A stretch of 64,000 nt of DNA, from contig JAJDUI010000012.1 in assembly GCA_022826745.1 (NCBI GenBank), positions 69,378-133,377 of the forward strand, in the 5' to 3' direction. Origin of the DNA: Thermoanaerobaculia bacterium (lineage in GTDB: Bacteria > Acidobacteriota > Thermoanaerobaculia > Multivoradales > Multivoraceae). Below the pieces are notes generated by a model, which saw nothing but the letters and a program-made list of their open reading frames with translations, ran no database searches and was not told the origin of the DNA. Positions within the stretch are counted from its first letter, which is position 1, and each line of letters opens with the position of its first letter. The translations under genes were made by a program, and so were the position numbers. Positions 14,385 through 32,205 of this stretch are shown piece by piece.

Positions 14385-14600
14385 TCGAGGTCTCCGCGAG
14401 GTGTGGTGTCCAGCGTTCTTGACGGGCGCAACGCTCCCGCTCTGCGCGACATACTATACGACTACTCAGTTTACGCGGGTGAACGCGATCGGGTTTCGCC
14501 GAACCGGCAACCGATACCGTAGGCGTTGCGCGATAACCGGTAGGCGCGAGTAAACCAAGCCCCGCCGACAACCGTATAGACACCCGAGGAGGAGAGCATC

Positions 14601-18500: not shown

Positions 18501-19117
18501 CGGAAGCCGGGGGCTTCAGGCTCCAGGGCGGCCTGGCAGGCTTCTTCGCACCCGCGGTCGAGACCGACCAGGGGTTGCAGGTCTACAACCTCTTCAGCGG
18601 CATTCCCGGCACCTGGTCGCGGTACGAACAGGCGTCGAGCTGGGGACGCTATCGCCGGACCACCGCCCTCGTGCCGAAGGGCGAAGGGAGCCGGCGCGCC
18701 ACCTACACGGCGGAGCTTCCCGAAGCCGGCCGCTGGCGGGTCGAGCTGCACGTGCCGTCGCTGTCGCCCGTGCCCGGCGGCGGCGAGATCCGCCGCGAGG
18801 TGCGGATCGGAGGCGGGGACGGCGGCCCGCCCGGCGACGACGCCCGCGGCGCCCAGGTCAACGTCTCGTTCGGCCTGAACCTGGGCACTTACGACCTTGA
18901 GCTTCGCAACGCCGGCAGTTCGCGGCCGATCGACTTCGACGCCGAAGGGGCAGGCATCGGCTGGGCGGTACTCGGCGACTTCGATCTTGCCCCGGGAACG
19001 GTGGAACTCGAACTGAGCGACGACACGACCGGCAACGTCGTGGCCGCCGACGCGGTGCGCTTCGTGCGCCTCGACAACGGCGCCGGCGCCGACACGACCG
19101 GCGGGGGTGCGCCGTGA
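15584..19117 (+). CDS. ABC-2 type permease fused to a ~880-aa extracytoplasmic domain (degenerate M1-aminopeptidase-like region plus golvesin-C-like end)
   Basis: TTG start overlapping the upstream stop (TTGA), with GGAGAGGAGG upstream. The N-terminal ~290 aa have about 6 TM segments and an ABC-2 style 'DRVIEVLDSRPYTNAELVFGRFFG' motif. No HEXXH is present; the nearest is 'CHNLVN'. The C-terminus 'WAVLGDFDLAPGTVELELSDDTTGNVVAADAVRFVRL' resembles golvesin-C-like domains. Confidence 0.7.
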   Translation: MISFSNVWSLARAEMRTIRRLFRFWLFAVIALFFCLFQYGYFWVIHGLFSGFSASAGSFSPKFLLSQTALWQTLVLGVGVVFLAFDLRARDRRDRVIEVLDSRPYTNAELVFGRFFGALFMVWGVAIVAMIIIQGFGHAGMAFGWWVGEPAIWSSVWAYLLIEALPALAVYVAFVQVVSLVSNNRLIAALAGVGLAVGTTYLSFQVPVYVLPSLALGGGFVSSISDLAPQIWTGISLLNRGSFALLGAGLLATAVAVHPRLDDTKRRTWAMAGGAGLLAGAALILTTVTWSTTQLNERDAWRAAHEQRRTEAVVDLQAIRGSVDVERGGRLTLDLEVHFVPGDASAPIFTLNPGLEVDGVWDASGAALDFSHDNGLLDIDSVSTTPSGQATGVRIRAQGRPDLRFAYLDAAVDFNTIEWQDAQIVILGNLNGFAQRNFVALPASLAWLPRPGAAVGVDDPRQRPRDFFELDLEVRTPSGWTVAGPGKAQPSGDGQRFAPAGSVPEVMLVAGRYDRWTTEIEGTEVELLLHPGHLRNLDFFADAREEIEAVAAERFATARELGLAYPYRQLTLVEVPWTLRAYGGGWRMDTERAPPGMLLLSESGLPTSRFEFRFRNPERYEDQEGGLARAKTNGLQQFFRTDFTGGNVEVGGVRNLFLYQTGARGPEALALEALCHNLVNRLINGGESYFSAHLFDREFGWTIGSVMQAGFSGQFGSGGGTMASGIVRGITDRPGVWDAVLASSLTDLDVEEDPKRAVNALYLKTSALATAILDGAGRERAAAMMANLLRDHRGTTFTAADLDRAAQEAGVDLAGLVGDFLHQTDLPGFIVSPAELERLPDDDQGTPQYQTRLFVRNGEEAPGLFRLRYAVRAPGGARWDSSEPVLIPGHTSVEFGLVTSRPPGTMLGSPYLSLNRREFPVELPRVDDETITDSEPLRGTRPADWMPAFLDSGADTIVVDDLDPGFSVATDEAEAGGFRLQGGLAGFFAPAVETDQGLQVYNLFSGIPGTWSRYEQASSWGRYRRTTALVPKGEGSRRATYTAELPEAGRWRVELHVPSLSPVPGGGEIRREVRIGGGDGGPPGDDARGAQVNVSFGLNLGTYDLELRNAGSSRPIDFDAEGAGIGWAVLGDFDLAPGTVELELSDDTTGNVVAADAVRFVRLDNGAGADTTGGGAP

Positions 19118-20199
19118 GCGCCCTTCGACCCCCGGGGCTGCGACTGCTCACCGCCGCCGCAACCTGCGCCACGATCCTCGGCTGCCAGGCCGCGGGCACG
19201 ACGGACACGGTCGACTTTCTGGTTCCGGTGAGCGCCACCGAAGTGGCGACCGGCAACGTGGAGGACCTGATCGTCGCCACCGGCACGTTGCGGACCGCGG
19301 AGAGCATCGTGCTTCAGGTCGAGACGCCCGGCCGGCTGCTGATCGGCCGCAACCGGGACGGCAGCCGGCTGGCCGAGGGCGACCCCGTGGTCCCCGACCA
19401 GATGATCGCCGAAGTCACGGGCGAGGACGCGCGGCTCGCGGCGCGGGTCGAAGCCACCCACCAGGCGTACCAGGGCGCGCTCGCCGAGCGTGACGCCCGC
19501 GCCAGGCTGTTCGAGCAGGAGCTGATCGCCGCCGAGGAACTGCGCCGGGCGGAGACCGCGCTCGAAGACGCCAAGGCAACCTGGGAGCAGAGCCTGCTGA
19601 CCGAAGACCGCGCCAGGATGCTGACCCCGATCGGCGGCGTGCTGATGGAGCTCGCCCGCGACGCGAGAGGCATGCCGATCGCCGATGGCCAGCTCGTTTC
19701 ACAGGGCTTCCAGGTCGCGCGGATCGCTCCCGTCGACTCCCTGGTCGCCGACATCGACCTGGTGGGGCCGGAGCTGGCGCGCGTCCACCCCGGCCAGAAG
19801 GGGCGGCTCCGCCACTTCGCCTGGGAGGACATCACGTTCGAGGGCGCCGTCGTCCGCCTCTCCCCCGAAGTCGACCCGACGACGCACACGTTCCGCGCCG
19901 AGGTCGCGATCAACAACCCCGGGGGCCTGCTCCGGCCCGGCATGTTCGTCGAGGTCACCCTGGTCGTCGAACAGCGCAGCGACGTGCCGGTGATCCCCCG
20001 CGAGGCGGTCACCGAGCGCGGCGGCCGGCGGGTCGTGTTCGTACTCGACGGCCAGCGCGCCGTGCGCCGCGAGGTCGTCCTCGGCCTGGGCGACGACGAG
20101 ATCGCCGAGGTCCGCCAGGGGCTCGAGGTCGGCGAGCGGATCGTCGTCCGCGGACTTGAGACACTGACCGACGGCACGCGCGTCCGGGTGTCCGGCTAG
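19114..20199 (+). CDS. efflux transporter periplasmic adaptor (membrane-fusion protein, HlyD/RND MFP family), lipoprotein
   Basis: GTGA overlap with the upstream stop. Lipobox 'ATILGCQAAG'. Coiled-coil-rich middle, and a C-terminal 'VPVIPREAV...VFVL...V.LG' beta-barrel pattern typical of MFPs. Confidence 0.85.
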   Translation: MSALRPPGLRLLTAAATCATILGCQAAGTTDTVDFLVPVSATEVATGNVEDLIVATGTLRTAESIVLQVETPGRLLIGRNRDGSRLAEGDPVVPDQMIAEVTGEDARLAARVEATHQAYQGALAERDARARLFEQELIAAEELRRAETALEDAKATWEQSLLTEDRARMLTPIGGVLMELARDARGMPIADGQLVSQGFQVARIAPVDSLVADIDLVGPELARVHPGQKGRLRHFAWEDITFEGAVVRLSPEVDPTTHTFRAEVAINNPGGLLRPGMFVEVTLVVEQRSDVPVIPREAVTERGGRRVVFVLDGQRAVRREVVLGLGDDEIAEVRQGLEVGERIVVRGLETLTDGTRVRVSG

Positions 20200-20227
20200 C
20201 GCCGCCCACCAGGAAGGTCGGGCAACC

Positions 20228-23200
20228 GTGATCGCTGCTCCTGGTGAAGGCTCCGGCCCGGCGCGACTCGCCGCCCGGCGGCCAGTAGCCGTCACGGTTA
20301 CCGCCCTGGCATGCGCCCTGGTGGGCTGGATGTCATGGCGCGAACTGCCCATCGATCTCCTCCCCGACCTGCGCTCGCCGACGATCGTCGTCGCCGTGCG
20401 CTCCGGCGACCGGCCGCCGACGGAGATGGAGCGGCTCTACGGCGAGCAGGTCGAGCAGCGCCTGTTCACCGTGCGCGGCATCCGCGAGGTGCAGCAGGTC
20501 GCCCGCACGGGCCGCCTGATCGCGACCGTCCGCTTCGACTGGGAAGCCGACATGGACCTGGCCCTGATCGAGGTTCAGAAGTCGATCAATCCGGTCGCGG
20601 CCGACGCGGAGGTCGACGAGGTCCTCGTCCGCCAACTGGATCCGAGGCAATCCCCGGTCATGACCCTGGGTCTGGCCGCCGAGCCGGACGGTCCCGATCT
20701 CGCTGAGCTCAGGCGCCTGGCCCGCCGGCAGGTCGCGCCCGCCATGGAGCAGCTCGCCGACGTCGCCGAGGTGAGGGTGCTTGGCGGACGGGAGCTGGAA
20801 GTGCGCGTGCGGGTCGACCGCTACCGCATGCAGGCGTTCGGCGTCACCCTGGGTCAACTCGAGCAGCGGCTGGTGGCCGAGAACGTCGACATCGACGCCG
20901 GCACCCTGGAGGACCGGGGCCAGGTCTTTCTGGTCCGCGGCATCTCGCGTTTCCGCAATCCGCGCGACGTCGAGCGCGTCGTCATCCGGTACCGAACGCA
21001 AGCGGGCGCCGCGGGCCAGGAGACCCGCCAGCCGATCCGGGTATCCGACGTCGCGGAGGTCGAAGTCGCCGACGCCGAGATCGACCACCTGGTGCGGGTG
21101 AACGGCCGGGAGGGGGTCGGCCTGCAGGTGTTCAAGGAGGCCGGCGCGAACACCGTCGAGGTTTCGCGCACCGTCAGATCGGCGCTCGAAGACCTGGAAC
21201 TCGACCTGCCCCGGGTCGAGGTGTCCATGGTGAACGACGACGCCGCCCTAGTCGAGGACGCGATGGCCGACCTGCAGAACGCCGCGCTGGTCGGCATCGC
21301 GCTCGCGATCGTCGTGCTGGTCCTGTTCCTGCGCTCCTTCGGTCCGACCGTCGTCGTCGCTTCCGCGGTGCCCGTTTCCCTCTTCGTCGCCCTGTTCGCG
21401 ATGCGCCTCTGGGACCACTCGCTGAACATCATCACCCTGGCGGGCCTCGCCCTCGGCGCCGGCATGCTGGTAGACAACGCGATCGTCGTCGTCGAGAGCA
21501 TCCACCGGCGCCACCGGCCCGGCGTGCCGGCGGCCGAGAGCGCCGCCCGCGGCACCGGCGAGGTCGCCGGCGCGATCGCCGCCTCGACGCTGACCACCTG
21601 TGTCGTCTTCCTGCCCGTCCTCTTCGTGCAGGGGCTGGCCGCGCGTCTGATCGAGGGCATCGCCTTCACCGTCACCGCGTCGCTGGCCGCTTCGCTCGCC
21701 GTCGCGATGATGCTGATTCCGGCCCTGTCGCGCTGGTTCCTGCCGCGCGCCAAGCCGGGGGCCGGCACCGACGCCGGTGAAGCGGCGGCCGAAGCCGCCG
21801 ACGCAGGGTCGACCGGCCCGGGCGACGCGGACGAGCGTCCCCTCGGCTGGGCTTTCGGAGCGCTGGAGCGGCTCGTGCTCTTCCTGCTGCGCCTGCGCTG
21901 GGTCGTCGTCGGCGCGGCCGTACTCGCCGCCGCGGTCGCGGTGAACGTCCTGCTCGGCCTCGGCAGCGAACTGCTGCCGCCGGCCGACCCGCGGCAGTTC
22001 TCGGTGCGCATGGTCGGACCGCCGGGCCAGCGGGTCGAGGCGACGGCGGCCGCCGTATCCACTCTCGAGGAGGCGGTCCGCCAGGCCGCTGGAGAGCACC
22101 TTGAGGCGATCCAGGCCGAAGTCGGCCGCTTGCCCGAGGATGACCGGCTCGTGACGACCGAACTGACCGAGGAGAACACGGCCCGACTCCTGGTGCGGAT
22201 GTCGGCCGAGGGTCCCACCGGGAGCCAGATCGTCGGCGCCCTGTCTTCGAGCTTCGCCGATCTGCCGGGCACGGAGATCGAATGGGAGGTCGGCACCTCC
22301 GCGCTGGCCGAAGCGCTGGGTTCGTCGGGCCCGCCGATCGTGGTCGAGATCGCCGGCCAGTCCCTGCCCGACCTGCGCGCCGCGGCGACCAGCCTGCGCG
22401 GCTCGCTCGCCGCCAGCGAGGAACTCTGGAACGTCCGTTCGTCCTTCGAGGGCGGCCCGCCCGAACTGCGGATCGAACTCGACCGGGCGATGGCCGACGG
22501 TCTGGGCGTGGACCTGGAGACGATCGCCCGCGTGCTCCAGTCGGCTCTCGACGGACGCAAGGTCACGCTGCTTTCCGTTGGCGACGAAGAGCGCCACGTC
22601 GTCCTTTCGCTGCCCCAGCCCAGGCCCGAGGAACTCGCCGGACTGCGCTTCACGAGCAGTGACGGGGCCGACCTCGTCCTCGGTCAGGTCGCCCGTTTCG
22701 TACCCACCGAAGGGGCGCGGGAGGTCTTCCGCCGCGACCAGCGCCGCGTGGCGCAGGTGACAGCCAGGATCACCGAGGGAAGCGACTACCCCAGGGCGAT
22801 CGCCGCCGCGAACGACGCCATCTCGTCCACCGAGCTGCCCCCCGGATTGATTGTCAGGCTCGCCGGGGAGGAGGAGGAACGGGAGCGGGCAACCTCGGAA
22901 CTGCGCCTGGCCGGCCTGCTGGCGATCGTCCTCGTGCTGATGGTCCTGGCAGGCACGTTCGAGTCCCTGCTGCAACCGCTCACCGTGCTGTTCGCCATCC
23001 CGCTGGCCCTCGTCGGCGTCGCCTGCACCCTGGGACCGCTTGGGCGGCCGGTCGGGGTCATGGCCCTGCTCGGCCTGATCGTGCTCGCCGGCGTAGCAGT
23101 CAACGACGCCGTCCTGCTGATCGCCGCCGCGCGGCGGCTGATGGCCGCCGGCGTCGAGCGGCGAGCGGCCCTGGCCCGCGCCGCTGCGATCCGGCTTCGG

Positions 23201-23413
23201 CCGATCCTCATGACGACGCTCACCACGGTGCTGGTCCTCGTGCCGCTCGCCGCCGGCGCCGGGGAGGCGGCTGAATTGCGGAGCCCGATGGCCTACACGA
23301 TCATCGGCGGCATCGTGACCTCCACCCTCGGTTCGCTGCTGGTGCTGCCCTGCCTGTACCTCATCCTGGCCGGCCGTGGCGGCGGAACGCGACGCACGGA
23401 AGCCGAAGCCTGA
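20228..23413 (+). CDS. RND family efflux transporter permease
   Basis: 1061-aa ORF with the AcrB-like N-terminus 'RRPVAVTVTALACALVGWMSWRELPIDLLPDL'. TM4 reads 'GLALGAGMLVDNAIVVVESI', and the two-fold 6-TM plus large-loop organisation is present. Confidence 0.9.
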   Translation: MIAAPGEGSGPARLAARRPVAVTVTALACALVGWMSWRELPIDLLPDLRSPTIVVAVRSGDRPPTEMERLYGEQVEQRLFTVRGIREVQQVARTGRLIATVRFDWEADMDLALIEVQKSINPVAADAEVDEVLVRQLDPRQSPVMTLGLAAEPDGPDLAELRRLARRQVAPAMEQLADVAEVRVLGGRELEVRVRVDRYRMQAFGVTLGQLEQRLVAENVDIDAGTLEDRGQVFLVRGISRFRNPRDVERVVIRYRTQAGAAGQETRQPIRVSDVAEVEVADAEIDHLVRVNGREGVGLQVFKEAGANTVEVSRTVRSALEDLELDLPRVEVSMVNDDAALVEDAMADLQNAALVGIALAIVVLVLFLRSFGPTVVVASAVPVSLFVALFAMRLWDHSLNIITLAGLALGAGMLVDNAIVVVESIHRRHRPGVPAAESAARGTGEVAGAIAASTLTTCVVFLPVLFVQGLAARLIEGIAFTVTASLAASLAVAMMLIPALSRWFLPRAKPGAGTDAGEAAAEAADAGSTGPGDADERPLGWAFGALERLVLFLLRLRWVVVGAAVLAAAVAVNVLLGLGSELLPPADPRQFSVRMVGPPGQRVEATAAAVSTLEEAVRQAAGEHLEAIQAEVGRLPEDDRLVTTELTEENTARLLVRMSAEGPTGSQIVGALSSSFADLPGTEIEWEVGTSALAEALGSSGPPIVVEIAGQSLPDLRAAATSLRGSLAASEELWNVRSSFEGGPPELRIELDRAMADGLGVDLETIARVLQSALDGRKVTLLSVGDEERHVVLSLPQPRPEELAGLRFTSSDGADLVLGQVARFVPTEGAREVFRRDQRRVAQVTARITEGSDYPRAIAAANDAISSTELPPGLIVRLAGEEEERERATSELRLAGLLAIVLVLMVLAGTFESLLQPLTVLFAIPLALVGVACTLGPLGRPVGVMALLGLIVLAGVAVNDAVLLIAAARRLMAAGVERRAALARAAAIRLRPILMTTLTTVLVLVPLAAGAGEAAELRSPMAYTIIGGIVTSTLGSLLVLPCLYLILAGRGGGTRRTEAEA

Positions 23414-23426
23414 CCGGGAACGCGCC

Positions 23427-26400
23427 GTGAAAGCAGGTCTCGACACGCTCGCCATCCGCCGTCCGGTCGCGGTGTCGATGTTCTTCGTCGGCCTCGTCCT
23501 GCTGGGGGGCTTCGCGTGGCAACGGCTGCCGGTGGAGCTCTTCCCCGCGCTGACGGGCGATTCGCTCTACGTCAGTTTCTTCCGTCCGGGCAGCGAGCCG
23601 GAGACGGTGGAACGCGAGATCCTGATGCCGCTCGAAGCCAGGGTGCGAACCCTGCCCCGGGTGGCCGAGACCTGGGGCGAGGTCACCGGCTCCTCCGGCA
23701 GCTTCACCGTCCGCTTTGAACGAGGCGTCGATCTCAAGGTGCGGGAACTCGAGATGCGCCGCATCGCCGCGGATCTGGCCCGCACGCAGCCGCGCGACGC
23801 GTTCCTCGACGTGCAGTCCGACGACACGAGTGTGTTCTCGAGCTTCGCCATGATCCTGCAGGCGACCGGTTCGGACGACGAGGACGCGCTGCACGACCTG
23901 GTCGAGGAACTGATCACGCCCCGGCTCGCCGCGGTGCCCGGGGTCAGCCAGGCAATGGTGGGCGGCGGCGCCGCTCGCCAGTTGACCGTGTGGGTCGACC
24001 CGAACCGCTGCGCGGCGCTCGGCGTGACGACGGAGGAGGTCACCGCGGCCGTACGCGGCGCGGCCGGACGGCTTCGCTACCTCGGCAGCCTGGAGGACGA
24101 AGCCGGGCGAACGGCCGTGATGCTCGACGGCCGTCCCGTCGGCACCGTGTCGATGGGCGAGGTCCGGGTCGTCCCCGACCGCCCGGTGCTGGTCCGGCAC
24201 GTCGCCGACGTCGAGATCGGTTCCGGGCGTCGCCAGATGCTCTACCGCGTGAACGGCGAGCCATCCGTCGGCGTTCTCGTGTTCCAGGAGGAAGGCGCGA
24301 ACCTGGTCCGCCTCGGCCGCGACCTGCGCCGCCGTATCGAGGAGATCAACGAGGAGTTCACCCCGCTCGGGATTCGCCTCCTCGTCAGCTTCGACGCCGC
24401 CGAACTGGTCGAAACGCAGATCGACCGGCTGCGGAACCTCGGCCTGTCGGGTTTCGCGATCGCTCTCCTGGTCCTGTTCCTGTTCCTTCGCCAGTGGCGC
24501 GCCGTGGCCGTGGTCGCGGTCGCCGTACCGGTCAGCCTGGCCGTCGCCCTTTCCTTCCTCTACGTGGCCGGCCTGTCGCTCAACCTCTTCACTCTGTTCG
24601 GTCTCGCCGTCGGCATCGGACTCATCGTGGACAACAGCGTCGTCGTGTACGAGTCCGTCCAGCGGCGCCTGGAACGCGGCAGGAGCCCCGACGACGCCGC
24701 CGCGGGCGGCATTCGCCGCACCGGCCGCGCCATTGTCGCCGCTTCCGTCACGACCGGGATCGTCTTCCTGCCCGCAGTCATCGTCGACCTGGAGTCGTCG
24801 CTGGTCCAGAACCTGATCGGGCTCCTGTCACTCGCCATCCTGCTGCCCCTGTTCGGCTCGCTGCTCGTGGCAATCGGCCTGGTGCCCCTGCTGGCGCGCC
24901 ATCTCGCCGCACCGGCGGCGATCCGCCGGTTGAGCAAGCTGCGCCAACGTCGCGAGCGCTTCGGCGGCAAGGCGCCGCCGGACCCCACCCGAATCCTCTT
25001 CGCGGGCGTGCTCGCATCCGCGCTGCGCCGGCCGGCGAGCTGGATCACCGGAGTCGTGACCGCCGTCGTCCTGAGCGTCATCGCCGCCCTGTTCCTCGTC
25101 GCTTCCAGCGGACCGGGTCAGGCGCCGATCGCCGACCAGGTCCAGCTCTCCGTGCGCCTGCCGGAGGGACGCGGCAGCCTCGAGTCGGCGGTCCGGGCCT
25201 TCGAACGTCTCGAAACGGTCCAGGAGGTGGACGGCGTAGACCGCGTGGAGAGCATGATCCGGGAAGAAGGGGGATCGCTGACCGTCCACCTCGTGGACGA
25301 AGACGAACGGCCCGAGGACCTGACGGCGGCCTTCGTCCGTAGACTCCTGCGGCCGCCCGCCCGCCGCGCCGGCGTCGAACTCCTGAATCCGGGCGAGGGA
25401 GAAGGACCGGGCGGCCGTGGTGGCGGCGGCGGGGGCGCCCAGGAACTGCTCGGCGGCGGCCCCTCCCGAGTCGTGCTCTCCGGCAACGACAACGAACAGT
25501 TGACCGACCTCGCGGCCCAGGTCACGGAGCGGTTGCGGGAGATCGAGGGCATCGCGAGCGCCTACCCGGCGGTGCGCCCGGGGCCCGATGAACTCCACGT
25601 GAGTCCGAACCGCCGGGCCTTCGACACCTTCGGCGTGCTGCTGGACGAGGTGTTGCCCATGCTCAATCTGGCCGGCCGGGAAGGCACCCGGATCGCCACC
25701 GGCTTCCCGCTGGCCAGCGGACGGGAGCTCCCGATCGTCGTGCAACGGCAGGAGAGCCAGCGCGACGAAGCGCAGTTGATGGACGGCAGCAGCTTCAACC
25801 GCGACGTCTCGCTCAGCGGCCTGCAGCGGCTCCGCGTCTCGACCGGGATCGGCGTGCTGCCGGTCGCCGCCCTGGCGCAGGTGCGGCAGGCGCCTCCCTC
25901 CCCGGTCATCACCCACCACAACGGAGTCCGCGAACGCGAGGTGCTGTACACGTTGTCGCAGGACGTGCCGCGGCGGGGCCCGGCCCGTGACGCGTTCGAC
26001 CGGAGTCTGGACGAAGCGATCGCCAGCATTCACCGGCCCGCAGGCACGACGATCGCGCTCGACCGCTCCGAGGAAAGCACGAACTGGTTCCGGCGCATCG
26101 CCGTGCCGGTCGTTCTTCTCGTCTTCCTCGTGCTGGCCGTGACGTTCGAGTCGATGACCCTGCCGATCCTCGTCCTCATCGCGCTTCCGCTCGCCCTGCT
26201 CGGTTCCGTGTGGGCGCTGGTCGTGACCGGCATGGGGTTCGAGGCGATGGCTCTCCTGGGGGCACTGGTGCTGCTGGGACTCGCGATCAACCCGGCCGTC
26301 CTGCTCGTCGACCGGATGCAGCAGCACACCCTGGGCGCCGGCTGGAGCGCCGGCGCGGCCGCACTCGCCGCGGTCCGCGAGCGGGCCCGTCCCGTGTTGA

Positions 26401-28232
26401 TGACGTCCGCCACGACGATCGCCGCCCTGGCGCCCCTCTCTATCTCGACCGGCCGCGAGAACGAACTCTGGCCACCCTTCGCCACGCTCGTGATCGGCGG
26501 CCTTCTGACCGCGACCGTGCTGACGCTGCTCGTCATCCCCGTCGGCTTCGTCTTCCTCCGCCGGCTCGACGAGCTGTTCAGTCGCGTGGGCCCCTGGGTG
26601 GTGCTCACCTGGCTCGGCGCCGTCATCGCGACCACGGCGCCTCTGTTCGCGTTCGGCGTGATCGAGTCGCTGTTCTGGCAGGTCACCACGACGGTGCTCA
26701 TCGCCGGCGCGCTGCTGGGTCTCACCGTCTGGCTGCTGCCGAAACCGGCGACGCCGGAACCGGAAGCCGTCAGCGGGCCGCCCAGGCTCGTCGTTCGTCA
26801 CCTGCGCAAGACGTACGGCCTTCCCGGACCGGTGCGCCGGGCGCTGCGAGCTTCCACGGAGTTCGCCAGGCGCGTCGCTTCCGCCGGCGGCCAGGCGTTC
26901 CATCCGGCCGACGCGCGCGACCGGCTCCTGCCCCTGTTGCTGCTGCTGGCCGGCGCGATCACCCTGGCCGTGCGCATCCGCGGCGGTCTGGTCATCCTCG
27001 GCATCTGGATCGCGATCCTGCTCCTCGGCTCCAGCCTGCTGCGCGAGATCCGGCGGGCCCGCGGCCACGCCGACGCGCTGGGGCGCGTGAAGCCGGGCGG
27101 CATCGAGGGTGTGCTGACGGCCCTGCTGCCCTGGGGGATCCTCGCGTGGCTGGTCGGCCCGGAGATGGTCGCCGACCCGGAGATCGCCGGCTTCGTCGCC
27201 CTGGCCATCGTCTCCGCGATCATCCTGCTGATCCAGCTCGGGCGGCGTACGGCACGCGTGGAGACGATGCGCCGGGACCAGAAGACGTCTCGGCGCCGCC
27301 GCGCCCGGGGCCTGCGCGGCCAGATCCTCCGTCTCTGGCGCGCCGCCGCAACCAAGCTCTTCGGCCTCGACCTGCCGATCGACACCGTAAAGGCCCTGGC
27401 CGCGGTCAGCTTCGAGGTCGACCGCGGCATGGTCGGCGTGCTCGGCCCGAACGGCGCCGGCAAGACGACCCTGCTGCGGCAGTTGACCGGCATCCTGGAC
27501 TCGACCCGGGGCCGCATCACGCTGGGCGGCGTGCCGCTGCTCAGCGTCCGCAAACGCCTCGCGCGCTACGTCGGCTACCTGCCCCAGGACGCCGGCCTGC
27601 CCCCTCGTCTGACCGCCCGCCAGTACCTCGAGTACTACGCCGCGCTCTACCAGATCGACGCCTCCGAGCGGGCCGAGCGCATCTCGACCCTGCTGCGGGA
27701 GGTCGGTCTCGACGAGCGGGCCGACGAGCAGATCGGCGGCTACTCCGGCGGCATGCGGCAGCGCGTCGCGGTGGCGCGCACCCTGCTCCGACTGCCTCCG
27801 ATCATCGTCGTCGACGAGCCCACGGTCGGCCTCGATCCCCGGGAACGGGTCCGCTTCCGCAACCTGCTCTCGCGTCTGGCCAAGGACCGGATCGTCCTGT
27901 TCTCCACCCACGTCGTCGAAGACGTCGCCGTGGCGTGCGAGCGGGTCCTCGTGCTGACGCGCGGCCGCATGGTCTTCGACGGCCATCCGGCGGCCCTGTC
28001 GCGGGAAGCGGAGGGCCGGGTGTGGTCGTGGCGGACCGCGGACGGCGGCGAGGCGCCGGATCTGCCGGAAGGCGCGGTGCTGGCTGACCAGAAGCCGGAA
28101 GCCGACGGCACCAGCAGCCTGCGCGTGCTTGCCGCGGCCCGTCCCGACGAACGGGCCGAGCCGGTCGAACCGACCCTGGAGGACGGCTACCTGTGGCTCG
28201 CCCGGTCGGTGCGTGGAGAGGCGCCGGCATGA
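23427..28232 (+). CDS. RND efflux permease fused in one ORF to extra TM segments and a C-terminal ABC ATPase domain
   Basis: Likely GTG start at 23427, 13 nt after the previous stop ('VKAGLDTLAIRRPVAVSMFFVGLVLLGGFAWQRLPVELFP'). The RND body runs to about nt 26580 (TM4 'GLAVGIGLIVDNSVVVYESV'). Two TM helices follow, then the ABC-like strand 'PRLVVRHLRKTYG' (about 26781), a ~190-aa hydrophobic insert, and a complete NBD. The NBD has Walker A 'GPNGAGKTT' (about 27444), 'YSGGMRQRV', 'IIVVDEPTVGLD' and 'LFSTHVVED'. The frame is open throughout. Confidence 0.75.
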   Translation: MKAGLDTLAIRRPVAVSMFFVGLVLLGGFAWQRLPVELFPALTGDSLYVSFFRPGSEPETVEREILMPLEARVRTLPRVAETWGEVTGSSGSFTVRFERGVDLKVRELEMRRIAADLARTQPRDAFLDVQSDDTSVFSSFAMILQATGSDDEDALHDLVEELITPRLAAVPGVSQAMVGGGAARQLTVWVDPNRCAALGVTTEEVTAAVRGAAGRLRYLGSLEDEAGRTAVMLDGRPVGTVSMGEVRVVPDRPVLVRHVADVEIGSGRRQMLYRVNGEPSVGVLVFQEEGANLVRLGRDLRRRIEEINEEFTPLGIRLLVSFDAAELVETQIDRLRNLGLSGFAIALLVLFLFLRQWRAVAVVAVAVPVSLAVALSFLYVAGLSLNLFTLFGLAVGIGLIVDNSVVVYESVQRRLERGRSPDDAAAGGIRRTGRAIVAASVTTGIVFLPAVIVDLESSLVQNLIGLLSLAILLPLFGSLLVAIGLVPLLARHLAAPAAIRRLSKLRQRRERFGGKAPPDPTRILFAGVLASALRRPASWITGVVTAVVLSVIAALFLVASSGPGQAPIADQVQLSVRLPEGRGSLESAVRAFERLETVQEVDGVDRVESMIREEGGSLTVHLVDEDERPEDLTAAFVRRLLRPPARRAGVELLNPGEGEGPGGRGGGGGGAQELLGGGPSRVVLSGNDNEQLTDLAAQVTERLREIEGIASAYPAVRPGPDELHVSPNRRAFDTFGVLLDEVLPMLNLAGREGTRIATGFPLASGRELPIVVQRQESQRDEAQLMDGSSFNRDVSLSGLQRLRVSTGIGVLPVAALAQVRQAPPSPVITHHNGVREREVLYTLSQDVPRRGPARDAFDRSLDEAIASIHRPAGTTIALDRSEESTNWFRRIAVPVVLLVFLVLAVTFESMTLPILVLIALPLALLGSVWALVVTGMGFEAMALLGALVLLGLAINPAVLLVDRMQQHTLGAGWSAGAAALAAVRERARPVLMTSATTIAALAPLSISTGRENELWPPFATLVIGGLLTATVLTLLVIPVGFVFLRRLDELFSRVGPWVVLTWLGAVIATTAPLFAFGVIESLFWQVTTTVLIAGALLGLTVWLLPKPATPEPEAVSGPPRLVVRHLRKTYGLPGPVRRALRASTEFARRVASAGGQAFHPADARDRLLPLLLLLAGAITLAVRIRGGLVILGIWIAILLLGSSLLREIRRARGHADALGRVKPGGIEGVLTALLPWGILAWLVGPEMVADPEIAGFVALAIVSAIILLIQLGRRTARVETMRRDQKTSRRRRARGLRGQILRLWRAAATKLFGLDLPIDTVKALAAVSFEVDRGMVGVLGPNGAGKTTLLRQLTGILDSTRGRITLGGVPLLSVRKRLARYVGYLPQDAGLPPRLTARQYLEYYAALYQIDASERAERISTLLREVGLDERADEQIGGYSGGMRQRVAVARTLLRLPPIIVVDEPTVGLDPRERVRFRNLLSRLAKDRIVLFSTHVVEDVAVACERVLVLTRGRMVFDGHPAALSREAEGRVWSWRTADGGEAPDLPEGAVLADQKPEADGTSSLRVLAAARPDERAEPVEPTLEDGYLWLARSVRGEAPA

Positions 28233-28906
28233 TCACGGTGCTGCGGACCTCCGCGGTCCTGCTCGCCGGACGCAGGTACTGGTTGCTGCCATTCCTGCCT
28301 CTCGTATGGCTGGGAATACAGGCCGTCATGCTGGTGGCCGGGATGCGGCCCAGCGTGGAGCCGGTGGCCGCCCAGAACGCCCTGATCGGCGTGCCGGTGG
28401 CGGTTCTCGCCATCTTCCTGGGCGGGCGCACGATCACCGGCGAACTCGACCAGCACAGCCTGGAGATCGCCTACACCGTGCCCGGAGGCGCCCACCGCGT
28501 CTGGCTCGGCAAGCTCGCCGCCGCCATCCTGATGCTGCTCACCAGCCTGGTTCTCCTGGCCGTCGTCACCTATGCCTTCTTCACCGACTTCCCGGTCCTG
28601 TCGAGCCTGTACGGCGCCACCCAGGGAGTCGTCTTCTACCTCGCGGCGGCGATGGGCTTCGGAACGCTGTTCCGCAGCGAGGTTGCCGGCTCCCTGGCCA
28701 CCGTCGGCCTTCTCGGCCTGAACAGCCTGCTCAGCGCGCTCCGCATCTCACCGTTCTGGAATCCGCTCACCGTGGAAGAAGCCGACGCGGCGCAGATGCT
28801 CGCGCTGAACGTTCAGAACCGCATTGGCGTCGCTCTCGCGATCGCGGCGATCGTTGCGCTCACCTTCAGCCGAGCGGAACGTCGCGAGAAGATGCTCGCC
28901 GGCTGA
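28229..28906 (+). CDS. 6-TM ABC-2 type permease (copy 1)
   Basis: ATG overlaps the stop of the fused ATPase (ATGA, 28229-28232). It has the ABC-2 style motif 'ITGELDQHSLEIAYTVPGGAHRVWLGKLAA' and multiple TM segments. It is a paralogue of 29784-30467. Confidence 0.75.
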   Translation: MITVLRTSAVLLAGRRYWLLPFLPLVWLGIQAVMLVAGMRPSVEPVAAQNALIGVPVAVLAIFLGGRTITGELDQHSLEIAYTVPGGAHRVWLGKLAAAILMLLTSLVLLAVVTYAFFTDFPVLSSLYGATQGVVFYLAAAMGFGTLFRSEVAGSLATVGLLGLNSLLSALRISPFWNPLTVEEADAAQMLALNVQNRIGVALAIAAIVALTFSRAERREKMLAG

Positions 28907-28990
28907 ACGCAGCCTTCGTACTCGATCTGACACGCAGCCACCCGCCACCCCGCCCCGCTCAGGTCACTCCACCGCAAGCGCACTCCGTTT

Positions 28991-29008
28991 TCCGTCTAGA
29001 TCCATAGG
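28991..29008 (+). promoter_or_regulatory. conserved 18-nt motif upstream of peptide gene 1
   Basis: TCCGTCTAGATCCATAGG is identical at 16/18 positions to 30576-30593 in the equivalent intergenic region of the duplicated module. It lies 157 nt upstream of the ATG. Its function is unknown. Confidence 0.35.
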
Positions 29009-29164
29009 CGGTCCACCGCCGCCGCAAGCGCCCCTGGGCGTTGCGGCGCTCCGGACCTGTGGAGGTCTTCCGCACGCGGAGGATCTTCCGCCGATCCACG
29101 TCGGCTGTCTGCCCGAACCGGGCCGACGGCAACACGAGACCTATGGAACGAAAGGAAACGAATC

Positions 29165-29464
29165 ATGATGAAGAAGATCCTGCCTGTTGCAGTGACAACA
29201 CTGGTGCTTGTGCTGAGTGCTGGTAGTACGTTCGCAGAGCCACCGGACCCCGCCGCCCCAAGCGACACATCCGGCATCGACTACGACCAGTTCCAACGAC
29301 TCCCGGACGCCGAAATGGCGGCAGTGACCGGAGGCGCCTGGTGGTCCGGAGGCTGCACCGGCGTCATTCGCGGGGCTGGCTTCATTCTCTGGTTGCATGG
29401 TCTTGCCGGCAACCCGGTCCAACAGGGTGTTGGGCTCTACATGCAACAGGTGGAGTGTGCGTAG
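29165..29464 (+). CDS. small secreted peptide precursor 1 (Sec signal plus double-glycine-type motif plus 42-aa two-Cys core)
   Basis: 99-aa ORF with RBS GAAAGGAA. Signal peptide 'MMKKILPVAVTTLVLVLSAGSTFA'. 'LPDAEMAAVTGG' fits the L(-12) E(-8) M(-7) V(-4) G(-2) G(-1) pattern. The core is 'AWWSGGCTGVIRGAGFILWLHGLAGNPVQQGVGLYMQQVECA'. It is a paralogue of 30727-31008. Confidence 0.6.
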   Translation: MMKKILPVAVTTLVLVLSAGSTFAEPPDPAAPSDTSGIDYDQFQRLPDAEMAAVTGGAWWSGGCTGVIRGAGFILWLHGLAGNPVQQGVGLYMQQVECA

Positions 29465-29485
29465 CCGGCCCGTCTTCTGCCGGCT
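29463..29485 (+). terminator. hairpin overlapping the stop codon of peptide gene 1
   Basis: AGCCGGC (29463-29469) / GCCGGCT (29479-29485) form a perfect 7-bp stem with a 9-nt loop, followed by TCAGTT. The T-tract is weak. Confidence 0.35.
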
Positions 29486-29745
29486 TCAGTTGACGACACT
29501 CGCCGCCTTCTCTCTGAGGTCCCCGAGGGACGGACAGACTGCATAACGCGGCTCTCACTTTGACAGGCGCGATGACGATGTTCATTAGTCCACAAAGCCA
29601 CTTCCAAATGGGGGCTGCATCACCTGCGGCACAAGGGCGTCAATCGGCCCCACGTGCCTCTCCAAGTGGGCGCATCATCTTCGTCGCCATCGCGCCGTCG
29701 TCGTCCGTCTCGCTTCATCAGCTCCCAGGTACCAAGCACAGCAAG

Positions 29746-29787
29746 ATCTGGCTCGCTCGGGCAGCGGTCGTTGCAGCCCCGGCATGA
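29746..29787 (+). pseudogene. remnant of an ABC ATPase 3' end retained in the duplicated module
   Basis: 'ATCTGGCTCGCTCGGGCAGCGGTCGTTGCAGCCCCGGCATGA' (IWLARAAVVAAPA*) aligns with the 3' end of the fused ATPase at about 28189-28232 ('YLWLARSVRGEAPA*'), including the ATGA junction. Upstream of about 29740 I see no NBD similarity. Confidence 0.45.
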
Positions 29788-30467
29788 TCACGATCATCCG
29801 ACTCTCCGCAGTGCTCCTCGGGGGCCAGCGCTACTGGCTGCTACCCCTGTTGCCCCTGCTGTGGCTGGCGGGCCAAGCAATGCTGCTCGTCGCCAACGTT
29901 CGGCCGAGCTTCGAACCCGTCGCCGCACAGAACACACTGATAGGAGTGCCAGTCGCGGTCCTCGCAGCGTTTCTGGGCGGCCGGATCATCGCTGGCGAAC
30001 TCGACCAGCGCACAATCGAGATCGCCTACACAGTACCCGGGGGTACCCGCTTCGTCTGGTTTGGGAAGCTCGCAGCCGCGGCCTTGCTCCTGGCTGCCAG
30101 CGCGGCATTGAGCGCGGCGTTGACGTTCGCTCTCTTCACTCCGTTCCCCGTCCTCCAGACTCTCTATGGGGCAGTGCAGGGAGCCCTCTTCTCCCTGGTA
30201 GCGACCAACGGGCTCTCAACACTCTTCCGCAGCGAAACCGCAGGTGCCATGGCCGCCACCGTTGTACTTCTCGTGAACGTTCGGTTCCCAACGACCCACT
30301 TCCGCGTCTCGCCGTTCTGGAACCCGCTCACGGTGGAGGGAGCAGACGCCGATCGGTTGGTCGCGATGGCCGTCCAGAACCGGATCGGGATCGCGCTCGT
30401 CATTGCCGCCATCCTCGCGCTCACCTTCGCCCGCGCGGAACGCCGCGAGCGAATGCTGGGCGGCTGA
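29784..30467 (+). CDS. 6-TM ABC-2 type permease (copy 2, paralogue of 28229-28906)
   Basis: 227-aa ORF colinear with copy 1: 'MITIIRLSAVLLGGQRYWLLPLLPLLWL...IAGELDQRTIEIAYTVPGG...SPFWNPLTVEGADA...QNRIGIALVIAAILALTFARAERRERMLGG'. By eye about two-thirds of residues are identical. No cognate ATPase gene is adjacent. Confidence 0.75.
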   Translation: MITIIRLSAVLLGGQRYWLLPLLPLLWLAGQAMLLVANVRPSFEPVAAQNTLIGVPVAVLAAFLGGRIIAGELDQRTIEIAYTVPGGTRFVWFGKLAAAALLLAASAALSAALTFALFTPFPVLQTLYGAVQGALFSLVATNGLSTLFRSETAGAMAATVVLLVNVRFPTTHFRVSPFWNPLTVEGADADRLVAMAVQNRIGIALVIAAILALTFARAERRERMLGG

Positions 30468-30575
30468 GATCGCACCCGGTACTCCTCACTGGCGCGCAGG
30501 TGCACCCCTCCCGCGCGAACCACGCCATCGTCCGCGCGGCCTCGTCTTCACGAGTGCCAAGTCCGTCCGCTCGAA

Positions 30576-30593
30576 TCCGTCCAGATCCATAGA
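30576..30593 (+). promoter_or_regulatory. conserved 18-nt motif upstream of peptide gene 2
   Basis: TCCGTCCAGATCCATAGA is the second copy of the motif at 28991-29008. It lies 134 nt upstream of the ATG. Confidence 0.35.
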
Positions 30594-30726
30594 TGGCGTA
30601 CGACCGTTCGTTGCGCCGAGAACCGCGCCGGTGAGTCGACGGGCGAAGCACCTCCAAGGCGAAGCCACGCCCTCAAGAACCTCGCGGGATCAACCAAAGA
30701 ACAAGAACCGAGAAAGGAACCCAACA

Positions 30727-31008
30727 ATGAAGAGAGCCCTGACCATCGCACTGGCGGTCGTCGTGTTCGGCGCCGGCACTGTGTTCGCACTGGCGCCGCA
30801 CCCGACTCCAGTGGACGACGCCGCGAACATCGATGCCTACGACCTCGGACCGCTCTCCGAAACGGATCTCCGCGCCGTCTTCGGCGCTCGATGGACCGCG
30901 TGTACCGCCGACCTTACGATGGCCCAGATGCACTTCATGGCCGGCAATCCAGTCGCGGGAGCCTTCCATCTCCTCGCGGCGTATCTCCGTCCGGCGATCT
31001 GCTCGTGA
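30727..31008 (+). CDS. small secreted peptide precursor 2 (Sec signal plus G-A double-glycine-type motif plus 39-aa two-Cys core)
   Basis: Internal ATG of track ORF 30403..31008, with RBS GAAAGGAA. Signal peptide 'MKRALTIALAVVVFGAGTVFALA'. 'LSETDLRAVFGA' fits L(-12) D(-8) L(-7) V(-4) G(-2) A(-1). The core is 'RWTACTADLTMAQMHFMAGNPVAGAFHLLAAYLRPAICS'. It shares 'IDxYD', 'AGNPV' and both Cys positions with peptide 1. Confidence 0.6.
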   Translation: MKRALTIALAVVVFGAGTVFALAPHPTPVDDAANIDAYDLGPLSETDLRAVFGARWTACTADLTMAQMHFMAGNPVAGAFHLLAAYLRPAICS

Positions 31009-31128
31009 GAACGGGCGGAGGAGCCGGAGCTTGACTACCGTCGTCCGGCACGCCGCCGTGCTGCTCGGGGGTCCAGGGAATCGAGGTTCAGATGACCCGT
31101 TGAATCACCGCGAATCCCGACTACCGGG

Positions 31129-32205
31129 TCAGAACTCGCAGGCCAGTCCGGGGTAGCGGAACACGACGCCCGGATCGAGCTGCTTCGGCTTGTTCGCCGC
31201 CTCTTCGGCGCGGGCGCCGGCGAGCATTCCCTCCATCCCGTAGTTGCCCTCGTGACAGGCGTACTCATAGATCGCGTCCTCGGTGCGCTTGAGGGGAATC
31301 GACGCCGTCCAGGGCTTCGTCCATGTCCCCGGATCGTTCACCGTGACCTCCCATTCCAGCGTCTCCGGGTCTGTCAGGGTGAACCGCTCGGTGATCGTGA
31401 GCTGCTCCGAAGAGCCCATGAAGTCGTTCTTCTCCGAGTAGTTCGCCGTCTCGACCACCAGCGTGTCGCCGTCCCAGTGGCCGCGGGAGTCGCCGTTCCA
31501 GAGGCGGACGTCGTCGTCGAGAACGGACTCGTCGCCCAGCCGAATGACGCGGGCGTCGTGGATCATCTCCTGGTGGATGACGACGTGGTCCGGGCTCTGG
31601 AAGAACTGGTGGTAGCCGTTGTAGCCGGCGAAGATGAAGGGGGCGCCGTAGCTGATACAGCGCTCGGCGATCGGGCGGTCGAGCCAGGAGTCGGCCGGAT
31701 GCTCCATCAGGTGCTTAACCCGCTTGCAGAGACGCTCCCTCGCCGGTTCGGTGAAGGGCGGGATCAGTCCGTCCGGTGGATCGACGACCAGGGAGGTGCG
31801 CTTCGTGAAGTAGCGGTCCGCGATCCAGAACTGGTTGTAGTTGCCGGTCGTCGGGTCGTATGAGGTCGCCTTGGTCCGCTCGATCGCAGCCAGGACGAGC
31901 TGGTCGCCGAACAGGGCGTCGGCGCCCGGGTTCGTCGCCTCGGCGACGGCCGCCATCAGCTCCTGGAACTCCTCGTCCGTCAGGCGTTCCTTGCCCGCCC
32001 ATGCGGCGGGGCGCTGCAGCGGCGTGCCGTTGTTGTTGGCCCACACGCCCTGGAGGTCGGGATGGCCGTAGGCGGTACGCGGGATCGTCCAGTCCGCGTC
32101 TGCCGCGTTGTTGTTCGCTGCCGGCACCGCACCGGCGGCCAGCCCGAGCAACAGGGCCATCACGCCAATCGTCGCCACGGCTCTCAACCGTTCGTTCTTC
32201 CTCAT
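31129..32205 (-). CDS. conserved hypothetical secreted protein
   Basis: Likely start is ATG at 32205 ('MRKNERLRAVATIGVMALLLGLAAGAVPA'), preceded by GGGAGGG; the track ORF extends to 32319. I recognise no catalytic motif. The C-terminal region reads 'YEYACHEGNYGMEGMLAG'. Confidence 0.6.
   Translation of the reverse strand: MRKNERLRAVATIGVMALLLGLAAGAVPAANNNAADADWTIPRTAYGHPDLQGVWANNNGTPLQRPAAWAGKERLTDEEFQELMAAVAEATNPGADALFGDQLVLAAIERTKATSYDPTTGNYNQFWIADRYFTKRTSLVVDPPDGLIPPFTEPARERLCKRVKHLMEHPADSWLDRPIAERCISYGAPFIFAGYNGYHQFFQSPDHVVIHQEMIHDARVIRLGDESVLDDDVRLWNGDSRGHWDGDTLVVETANYSEKNDFMGSSEQLTITERFTLTDPETLEWEVTVNDPGTWTKPWTASIPLKRTEDAIYEYACHEGNYGMEGMLAGARAEEAANKPKQLDPGVVFRYPGLACEF

Follow-up and report, generated by a model that had tools for sequence, protein, structure and literature searches.

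Gene organization of the fusion locus

The DNA analyzed was a 64,000-nt stretch from a Thermoanaerobaculia bacterium (assembly GCA_022826745.1, contig JAJDUI010000012.1, positions 69,378 to 133,377 of the forward strand), referred to below as the window; all coordinates are window positions. The gene under study, at 23427..28232, encodes within one polypeptide a permease of the resistance-nodulation-division (RND) superfamily, designated RND2, and the nucleotide-binding domain (NBD) of an ATP-binding cassette (ABC) transporter. This RND–ABC union is a genuine ancient gene fusion and stands fifth among the six genes of an operon that would encode a composite envelope pump. Its features are listed below (TM, transmembrane helix; AF2, AlphaFold2; pLDDT, predicted local distance difference test score).

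23427..28232, + strand, fusion gene RND2-NBD, 1601 aa from GTG 23427, recognized by Pfam and homologues
23427..26579, + strand, RND2 body, a full RND permease of 12 TM helices that has both periplasmic loops; ACR_tran model positions 4-1020 of 1021
26595..26738 (residues 1057-1104), + strand, hairpin of TM13 and TM14, from hydropathy; AF2 helices 11-30 and 37-58, pLDDT 85-92
26781..26819 (residues 1119-1131), + strand, detached first strand (β1) of the NBD with the A-loop Tyr, PRLVVRHLRKTYG; 11-residue strand by AF2/DSSP, model residues 76-86
26820..27383, + strand, 188-aa insert in the NBD, comprising an amphipathic helix, TM15-18, a conserved cytoplasmic loop and an Arg-rich helix
27042..27110 (residues 1206-1228), + strand, K/R-rich loop REIRRARGHADALGRVKPGGIEG between TM16 and TM17, on the cytoplasmic side
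27384..28229 (residues 1320-1601), + strand, NBD core and C-terminal domain; catalytic motifs invariant in 80 sequences
27444..27470, + strand, Walker A 'GPNGAGKTT'
27576..27590, + strand, Q-loop
27741..27764, + strand, signature 'YSGGMRQR'
27801..27836, + strand, Walker B/D-loop IIVVDEPTVGLD
27903..27917, + strand, H-loop 'STHVV'

The original prediction, made from the sequence without database searches, had described a single frame of about 1600 codons, an RND body reaching to about nt 26580, two further TM helices ahead of an ABC-type first strand at about 26781, an insert of about 190 aa with some four helices, and a full, apparently competent NBD. This layout was recovered in every part. 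The + strand frame was uninterrupted over 1601 aa, RND2 (residues 1-1051) ended with 'LRRLDELF' at nt 26579, two hydrophobic helices preceded PRLVVRHLRKTYG, the insert measured 188 aa with four hydrophobic helices following the first strand, and all NBD motifs quoted in the prediction were located.

Authenticity of the reading frame

On the + strand, the frame opens at 23376, closes with the TGA 28230-28232 and counts 1618 codons when read from its first GTG. The start of the fusion gene is likely GTG 23427 rather than 23376; GTG 23427 lies 13 nt past the stop codon of the preceding RND gene (RND1) and yields a protein of 1601 aa, close to the length of most near homologues (1600-1606 aa). In Pfam searches, ACR_tran matched residues 25-1061 (model positions 4-1020 of 1021, E 3e-147) and ABC_tran matched residues 1343-1483 (E 9e-28), so that PF00873 and PF00005, proposed beforehand as the test of the fusion, were both found on one polypeptide.

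The stretch has a GC content of about 69%, and long chance open reading frames are frequent there; at 70% GC, even one of about 4.8 kb can arise by chance. An artificial origin of the fusion, with two genes merged through a frameshift, an indel or chimeric assembly, was weighed with this in mind. GC content at third codon positions (GC3) was 0.82-0.98 in each 150-nt window from 25827 to 28226, the junction included, and stayed at about 0.9 over the join. When the codons of the linker between RND2 and the NBD core were compared with nine loci, synonymous changes exceeded non-synonymous ones (87 vs. 50 for L017 and 52 vs. 22 for L010), which indicates that the linker is translated in the fusion frame and is under purifying selection, weaker than that acting on the NBD. 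Across relatives, the linker was nearly free of indels. Codon-position GC and homology together exclude a chance reading frame. The same continuous frame was also present in at least 120 independent cluster representatives and on many closed chromosomes, and the sole apparently split case lay on a contig of 2x coverage with a fragmented RND gene. An artifact has therefore practically no chance of being the explanation.

Distribution and conservation of the fusion

Homologues were searched among 5.8 billion protein clusters, for which cluster representatives were listed. At least 120 representatives were obtained from NCBI, ENA, JGI and Logan assemblies, with identities of 54-98% at about 98% coverage, on contigs of up to 7.4 Mb. 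Apart from three truncated entries, they measured about 1570-1880 aa, a few having terminal extensions, and shared the architecture described here. PF00873 and PF00005 were found together in every listed homologue reaching the NBD. When one genome per species was scanned with the junction-plus-NBD region as the query, this region turned up in about 35 species, with identities of 69-98% and in many cases on closed chromosomes. The carriers were Candidatus Multivorans, Thermoanaerobaculia, 'Holophagales' and other Acidobacteriota, from sponges and soil. The most distant fusions, with 32-35% linker identity, were those of L085 (labelled Acidobacteriota UBA4820) and of the P0142 contig.

A phmmer search with the linker as the only query, covering 1.84 billion representatives, returned 33 proteins at E ≤ 1e-3 and nothing beyond the fusion family. 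Full-length matches measured 1528-1601 aa and had their linker at about residues 1025-1320; the remainder looked like fragments. One protein of 539 aa (P0125) was considered as an unfused relative and rejected. It overlaps a preceding RND fragment of 517 aa on a long-read contig of 2x coverage, and the split is best explained as a sequencing frameshift. Homologues encoding RND and ABC parts as truly separate genes, which would have spoken against the original prediction, were thus not found in these searches.

Two fusion copies were present in some genomes, namely L029 and L030 (both on OZ242353.1) and L018 and L032 (both in Ca. Multivorans azotirespirans), the duplicates being 85% and 89% identical to the C-terminal region of the present fusion. 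These double copies show that the cassette has been duplicated within lineages.

In a subclade (P0068, P0075 and P0076; 1840-1876 aa), an extra N-terminal extension of about 240 aa was observed, with Pfam matches to Sigma70_r4 and an HxxxCxxC motif like that of zinc anti-sigma factors. This extension may represent a real triple fusion or a run-on of gene calling. At the distant P0142 locus, a gene for an extracytoplasmic function (ECF) sigma factor and a small open reading frame lie directly upstream of the cassette.

In public databases, members of the family are filed only under automatically assigned names, among them 'efflux RND transporter permease subunit' and 'ATP-binding cassette domain-containing protein', or under a double name in JGI.

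Linker helices and the split first strand

Residues 1046-1601 of the fusion were modelled with AF2 from an 80-sequence alignment (mean pLDDT 85.9, predicted TM-score (pTM) 0.72). The model contained six long helices and a strand at 'RLVVRHLRKTY'. TM13 and TM14 are connected by a short acidic loop and bring the chain back to the cytoplasm, where residues 1105-1165 form a K/R-rich stretch containing PRLVVRHLRKTYG. Four hydropathy peaks at residues 1167-1272 correspond to TM15-18, with an acidic 'PEMVADPE' loop between TM17 and TM18 on the outer side, followed by an Arg-rich segment (residues 1273-1319, 15 K/R). In model numbering, the helices of the insert were assigned to 90-107, 115-138, 143-166, 180-204, 206-239 and 251-267. 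The best-conserved part of the linker was the REIRRARGHADALGRVKPGGIEG loop, the TM helices themselves being moderately conserved.

The number of helices on each side of the first strand is even and the charges follow the positive-inside pattern, so that this strand and the NBD both come to lie in the cytoplasm. The periplasmic location of the NBD that would have contradicted the original prediction is thus opposed by the topology.

In the first-strand region, R79, L81, K83, Y85, G89 and P90 were invariant in the 80 sequences. The strand 'RLVVRHLRKTY' aligned with the N-terminus VDVQGLRHVYKGG of the free ABC ATPase encoded by the first gene of the operon, and its Tyr occupies the site of the adenine-stacking A-loop residue of ABC ATPases. 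By these two assignments, the insert falls within the β1-β2 hairpin, right after the A-loop. A contiguous β1-β2 fold is consequently absent, with 188 residues including four TM helices separating the two strands. DSSP strands require hydrogen-bonded partners, and the other extended strands of the model all belong to the NBD; from this we infer that the detached strand pairs with the NBD sheet and would complete it.

Two other assignments were tried and rejected. The segment ILRLWRAAATKLFG, which directly precedes the NBD core, was considered as the true first strand, but AF2 gave helix 251-267 at this site and it is 'RLVVRHLRKTY' that matches the free NBD. The six linker helices were considered as a cryptic ABC-2 domain, but hhalign against the profile of the small permease encoded downstream gave probabilities of 0.1-1.3%. 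The two halves of the linker showed no detectable kinship with each other in hhalign.

The fused NBD

Invariant positions in the 80 sequences were Y85, G295-T303, Q342, S395-R401, D418-E419 (including the catalytic Glu), L424-D425 and H450, and the fused NBD, judged by these motifs, looks like a competent ATPase. Its sequence relatives included ABCA4 (E 2e-55 over two domains), ABCA3/7/1, 4yer (2e-33), 1vpl, NosF and LptB, and its fold relatives were 4yer and NosF. The best NCBIfam models were GldA, DrrA, PQQ_ABC_ATP and RbbA, all far below their equivalog cutoffs (168 vs. 402 for GldA), so that the domain falls in the DrrA/GldA/NosF/ABCA group. Past the NBD core comes a C-terminal domain similar to the additional ones found at the C-termini of 4yer and NosF-type ATPases.

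This C-terminal domain is one reason to ask whether the NBD serves as a nucleotide sensor or an assembly switch of the RND complex and not as a transport motor. The Sigma70_r4 and HxxxCxxC extension of one subclade, a hint of a connection to signalling, and the ECF sigma gene upstream of one distant cassette fit the same notion. A purely regulatory domain would nevertheless hardly be expected to keep the full catalytic set invariant, catalytic Glu and H-loop His included, or to be always accompanied by a coupled, dedicated permease gene, and this role is regarded as very doubtful.

The six-gene cassette

The fusion gene is part of a cassette with the order free NBD, giant ABC-2 permease, RND adaptor, RND1, RND2-NBD fusion and small ABC-2-like permease. 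Its other members are as follows.

14601..15587, + strand, free ABC ATPase (328 aa), first cassette gene; Pfam ABC_tran E 2e-31
15584..19117, + strand, giant permease (1177 aa) with an N-terminal ABC-2-type membrane domain, a C-terminal region of about 850 aa and a Golvesin_C end
19114..20199, + strand, RND-type periplasmic adaptor (361 aa); Pfam HlyD_D23, GTGA overlap with the giant permease gene
20228..23413, + strand, RND1, unfused RND paralogue (1061 aa); ACR_tran E 4e-199, full length
28229..28906, + strand, small six-helix ABC-2-like permease (225 aa), ATGA-coupled to the fusion

Between neighboring genes there are either start/stop overlaps (TTGA, GTGA and ATGA) or short gaps, of 28 and 13 nt. 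This set of six genes recurred in identical order, but between unrelated flanking genes, at L001 (66% identity), L002/L003 (57%) and L004 (54%), and the order was also kept at L085 and on the P0142 contig, at 32-35% linker identity.

The fused NBD has its closest paralogue in the free NBD (37% identity over 282 aa, C-terminal domain included), and the TGA stop of the free NBD gene overlaps the TTG start of the giant permease gene. In orthologues of the giant permease, ABC2_membrane_2 was matched in four of five (best E 8e-11) and Golvesin_C in all five. TM segments were confined to residues 21-288, and the C-terminal region of about 850 aa is presumably periplasmic. The protein also gave weak matches to NosY, and its C-terminal region showed faint similarity to Peptidase_M1, a Zn-metalloprotease and a xanthan lyase C-terminus. 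An HExxH motif was not evident in the sequence or in the alignment consensus ('CHNLVN' at the site checked), and no NCBIfam model matched the giant permease. The adaptor scored 155.9 bits against the NCBIfam model TIGR01730 RND_mfp (cutoff 94.9).

The gene following the fusion had been predicted to be an ATGA-coupled ABC-2 permease. The coupling was confirmed, ATG 28229 overlapping the TGA stop, while the ABC-2 label received moderate support. ABC2_membrane_2 was matched in 37 of 45 members of the family (best E 1.3e-6), and the present copy scored 16.7 bits against a cutoff of 27.2. The AF2 model (pLDDT 85, pTM 0.85) gave high-probability Foldseek matches to type V domains (KpsM, NosY, Wzm and PmtCD) at TM-scores of 0.5-0.59, with weak E-values of 0.2-2. 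The small permease, named 'hypothetical' by NCBI, directly followed the fusion in every cassette examined. BLASTP revealed no recognizable paralogy between the small and the giant permease.

No FtsX or MacB_PCD domain was matched on the fusion in Pfam or NCBIfam. PADLOC defense models returned generic ABC ATPase matches only, and a promoter and terminator scan of 14000..31300 gave nothing above shuffled expectation.

The conservation of this arrangement bears on a simpler explanation, in which a 'Rosetta stone' fusion merely keeps an independent ABC-2 exporter beside an RND pump, with no hand-off or coupling between them. The RND and NBD halves each look complete on their own, and the TM helices of the linker are just moderately conserved. 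ABC-2 exporters with their own adaptors are moreover familiar from E. coli (YbhGFSR and YhiI-RbbA-YhhJ), and RbbA is matched by both NBDs in NCBIfam. The fusion and the cassette order nevertheless persist down to about 32-35% linker identity with no unfused member found, the linker is under purifying selection and nearly indel-free, and the NBD is split by a TM insert and not merely appended, which a neutral tether would not require. Simple co-localization is accordingly considered possible, though rather unlikely.

Peptide and permease modules downstream of the cassette

Downstream of the cassette, the following genes were found.

29165..29464, precursor peptide
29784..30467, permease paralogue
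30727..31008, precursor peptide

One to three such modules were present here and at about 30 loci of the Candidatus Multivorans clade, each consisting of a precursor peptide of about 95 aa and an extra paralogue of the small permease, with no extra NBD. Among L006-L040, the modules lay about 900-6600 nt past the end of the NBD, with up to four permease copies per locus. The peptides carry a Sec-type signal and a core of about 40 hypervariable residues with an invariant Cys on either side, together with a motif like a double-glycine leader, L-[ST]-[DE]-x-[DE]-[LM]-x-x-V-x-G-G. Matches to BlpC and ComC were sub-threshold. Where the C-terminal part of the fusion was 98% identical, the peptides were only 49-64% identical, indicating a far faster divergence than that of the pump. 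With this pattern, the peptides would fit a bacteriocin-like role, with cognate immunity or export permeases borrowing the ATPase of the cassette.

A GC content of 0.62-0.66 was observed at 28900..31100, compared with about 0.72 in the cassette, coinciding with the peptide and permease modules. This suggests that the segment was more recently acquired or is turning over faster.

The RND halves and the proton relay

RND2 showed the hallmarks of an RND permease, namely 12 TM helices, large periplasmic loops between TM1 and TM2 and between TM7 and TM8, and a full-length family match. Its hydropathy peaks were grouped at residues 13-31, 338-493, 540-558 and 914-1044. The nearest solved structures were the HAE-1 pumps AcrB, MexB and MdtB (E 1e-60 to 1e-67). 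RND1 and RND2 were 29% identical. In the periplasmic domain of RND2, a Gly-rich insert, GEGEGPGGRGGGGGGAQELLGGGPS, was noted at 25392..25466; throughout the family, this site holds a poly-Gly tract whose length varies.

The relay positions in the two permeases are listed below.

24630..24635, + strand, RND2 D402/N403, equivalent to AcrB D407/D408
26283..26297, + strand, RND2 segment containing N955, equivalent to K940
26382..26408, + strand, RND2 'RARPVLMTS'
21470..21481, + strand, RND1 TM4 'VDNA'
23096..23110, + strand, RND1 TM10 'AVNDA'
23192..23218, + strand, RND1 TM11 'RLRPILMTT'

E. coli AcrB, CusA, MdtB and MdtC were aligned with 114 RND2 sequences and with RND1 sets of four and five sequences. 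The equivalents of D407, R971 and T978 were kept in all 114 RND2 and in all RND1 examined. D408N and K940N were found in 113-114 of the 114 RND2 and likewise in all RND1 examined. By alignment to E. coli AcrB, the D407/D408/K940/R971/T978 relay is thus incomplete in both proteins. The original prediction had remarked that both paralogues carry 'VDN' in TM4, which holds (from 24627 in RND2 and from 21470 in RND1); the change extends to the invariant K940N, which had not been noticed. As judged from the alignment, RND1 and RND2 are members of the RND superfamily with a putative non-AcrB relay consisting of a single TM4 Asp and a TM11 Arg, and the pump is plausibly still proton-coupled through this reduced relay. 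The TM10 Asp of RND1 (D941) was considered as a CusA-like relay partner and rejected; it is present in four RND1 and lost in L085, and the equivalent position in RND2 is Pro.

The invariance of D408N and K940N invites another explanation, namely an ATP-energized or ATP-gated RND pump, whose NBD would drive or license the RND cycle through TM13-18 packed on the RND membrane domain, so that ATP would supplement the proton-motive force or take its place. The position of the TM insert, joined directly after the invariant A-loop Tyr at the ATP site, would suit such coupling, by an unusual route from nucleotide binding to membrane helices, the conserved loop at 27042..27110 could serve as a transmission element, and the linker is exclusive to the fusion family. 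The equivalents of D407, R971 and T978 are, however, invariant, as expected with proton use, and single-Asp relays function in other RND members, such as CusA, whose TM4 'VDA' was aligned here. RND1 carries no NBD at all. The fused NBD also has a conventional job at hand, with an ABC-2-type permease coupled to it, just as its free paralogue has a permease of its own, and a dimeric NBD on a trimeric RND permease is geometrically awkward. Direct action of ATP on the RND cycle is therefore considered improbable.

Comparison with known systems

A similar gene arrangement is that of MdtABC and MuxABC, in which two adjacent RND genes follow one RND-type adaptor gene, and MdtB and MdtC were among the best NCBIfam and PDB matches. 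This heteromeric-RND order of adaptor, RND1 and RND2 was kept in all cassettes examined. MdtB and MdtC are 50% identical, compared with 29% for RND1 and RND2, and, unlike in those systems, both RND proteins here lack D408 and K940, and RND2 is extended by six further TM helices plus an ABC ATPase.

With AcrB and MexB, the present permeases share the full-length ACR_tran match, the adaptor partner and the equivalents of D407, R971 and T978. They differ from AcrB in overall identity (about 21-23%) and in the invariant D408N and K940N, and RND2 differs further in the poly-Gly periplasmic insert and in the C-terminal fusion. Most positions checked in the Phe cluster of AcrB (F178, F610, F615, F617 and F628) were not conserved, F136 alone being kept, in RND2. 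CusA resembles them in having one Asp in TM4 in the same alignment.

The NBD is closest, by both sequence and fold, to those of ABC-2 or type V exporters (NosDFY, KpsMT, Wzm-Wzt, PmtABCD and LanFEG-type), and the partner permeases, with their ABC2_membrane matches and a putative type V-like fold, may resemble those of these exporters. The pmtABCD genes have an NBD-TMD ... NBD-TMD layout (TMD, transmembrane domain) that resembles the present cassette. The present NBD differs in being split by a four-helix insert and covalently attached to an RND permease.

MacAB-TolC, YbhGFSR and YhiI-RbbA-YhhJ provide further parallels, as ABC ATPase systems encoded together with a periplasmic adaptor in diderms. 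Unlike in MacAB-TolC, there is no MacB/FtsX-type periplasmic domain here, the adaptor is of RND type and accompanied by two RND permeases, and the ABC and RND parts form one chain. At the level of the insert, the regulatory insertion of CFTR NBD1 occupies the same β1-β2 site with about 35 soluble, disordered residues, compared with 188 residues and four TM helices in the present protein.

A conceptual likeness exists with SecA-SecYEG-SecDF, where an ATPase and a proton motor of the RND superfamily act on one cargo, a cytoplasmic ATP step being combined with a periplasmic, proton-driven RND-superfamily step. Apart from the RND fold, the proteins are unrelated, and the Sec system consists of separate polypeptides with a non-ABC ATPase. 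The Pfam and NCBIfam matches of both RND proteins to SecD/SecF reflect the shared membrane fold.

Proposed mechanism

The explanation to which we lean, with reservations, is a hard-wired relay in which an ATP-driven ABC-2 step would hand cargo to the two-paralogue RND/adaptor pump. The tethered NBD would power ABC-2-type membrane domains, the first candidate being the coupled small permease, with the NBD acting as a homodimer. Alternatively, the fused NBD may form a heterodimer with the free NBD, and the giant and small permeases a membrane pair, in the NBD-TMD ... NBD-TMD manner. The ATP-driven module would extract or flip an amphipathic cargo from the cytoplasm or the inner membrane and release it close to where the RND1/RND2 pump takes in substrates, from the periplasm or the outer leaflet. 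Driven by its reduced single-Asp proton relay, this pump would then pass the cargo out of the cell by way of the adaptor and of an outer-membrane channel whose gene lies elsewhere. Because of the covalent link, proximity and stoichiometry would be fixed and hand-off could be direct. In the Candidatus Multivorans clade only, the secreted, fast-evolving peptides with two cysteines, whose genes follow directly downstream, may serve as cargo. That inner-membrane transporters feed tripartite pumps which capture substrates from the periplasm is an established idea (PMC4338810).

Several observations weigh against such a hand-off. An outer-membrane factor was not found in the cassette or among the scanned open reading frames of the 64-kb window. 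The D408N and K940N changes would inactivate AcrB, as established by mutagenesis, which makes proton coupling here an assumption. RND pumps are trimeric and NBDs act as dimers, so that the stoichiometries do not match simply. The contact between the detached strand and the NBD sheet is putative, being drawn from the DSSP assignment. Both NBDs possess fully consensus ATP sites and nothing specific for a heterodimer; degenerate, asymmetric sites, considered as a sign of an obligate heterodimer, were rejected for the same reason. As for the peptides, their modules are absent beside the distant cassettes L001, L004 and L085, and they therefore cannot be the general cargo of the family; with their Sec-type signals, moreover, they can enter the periplasm independently of an ABC transporter.

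Significance of the fusion

RND and ABC pumps are held to be separate classes with separate energy sources, and here they are joined in one protein. Every domain belongs to a known superfamily, and we could not find a description of the combination. In the full-text literature searched, with most subscription journals outside its scope, there was no description of a covalent RND-ABC union, of a four-helix membrane insert within an NBD, of the family-specific six-helix linker or of the six-gene cassette, and nothing relevant on Candidatus Multivorans, its species names, PF00873 plus PF00005, or golvesin.

For the transfer of cargo from the inner membrane to tripartite pumps, the usual explanation is that it diffuses from one independent transporter to the next. 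The fusion has been retained in widely divergent Acidobacteriota, with linker identities running from about 98% down to about 35%, and offers a system for asking whether ABC and RND transporters hand over cargo directly, how a trimeric RND permease accommodates a dimeric ATPase and whether an RND cycle can be driven or gated by ATP. The insert after the adenine-stacking Tyr represents a new way of linking an ATP site to membrane helices. If ATP did act directly on the RND cycle, this would be the first transporter of the RND superfamily powered or licensed by an ABC ATPase, a dual-energy efflux machine. For the sponge-symbiont clade, the modules suggest a role of the cassette in peptide warfare or self-protection, which, if true, would make it relevant to symbiont ecology.

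Other genes of the window

Genes of the sulfatase and phosphodiesterase families were found at 10426..11970, 35052..36404 and 61830..63260. They are unrelated to the cassette and fit the sponge-associated metagenome-assembled genomes of Acidobacteriota from which the closest matches originated.

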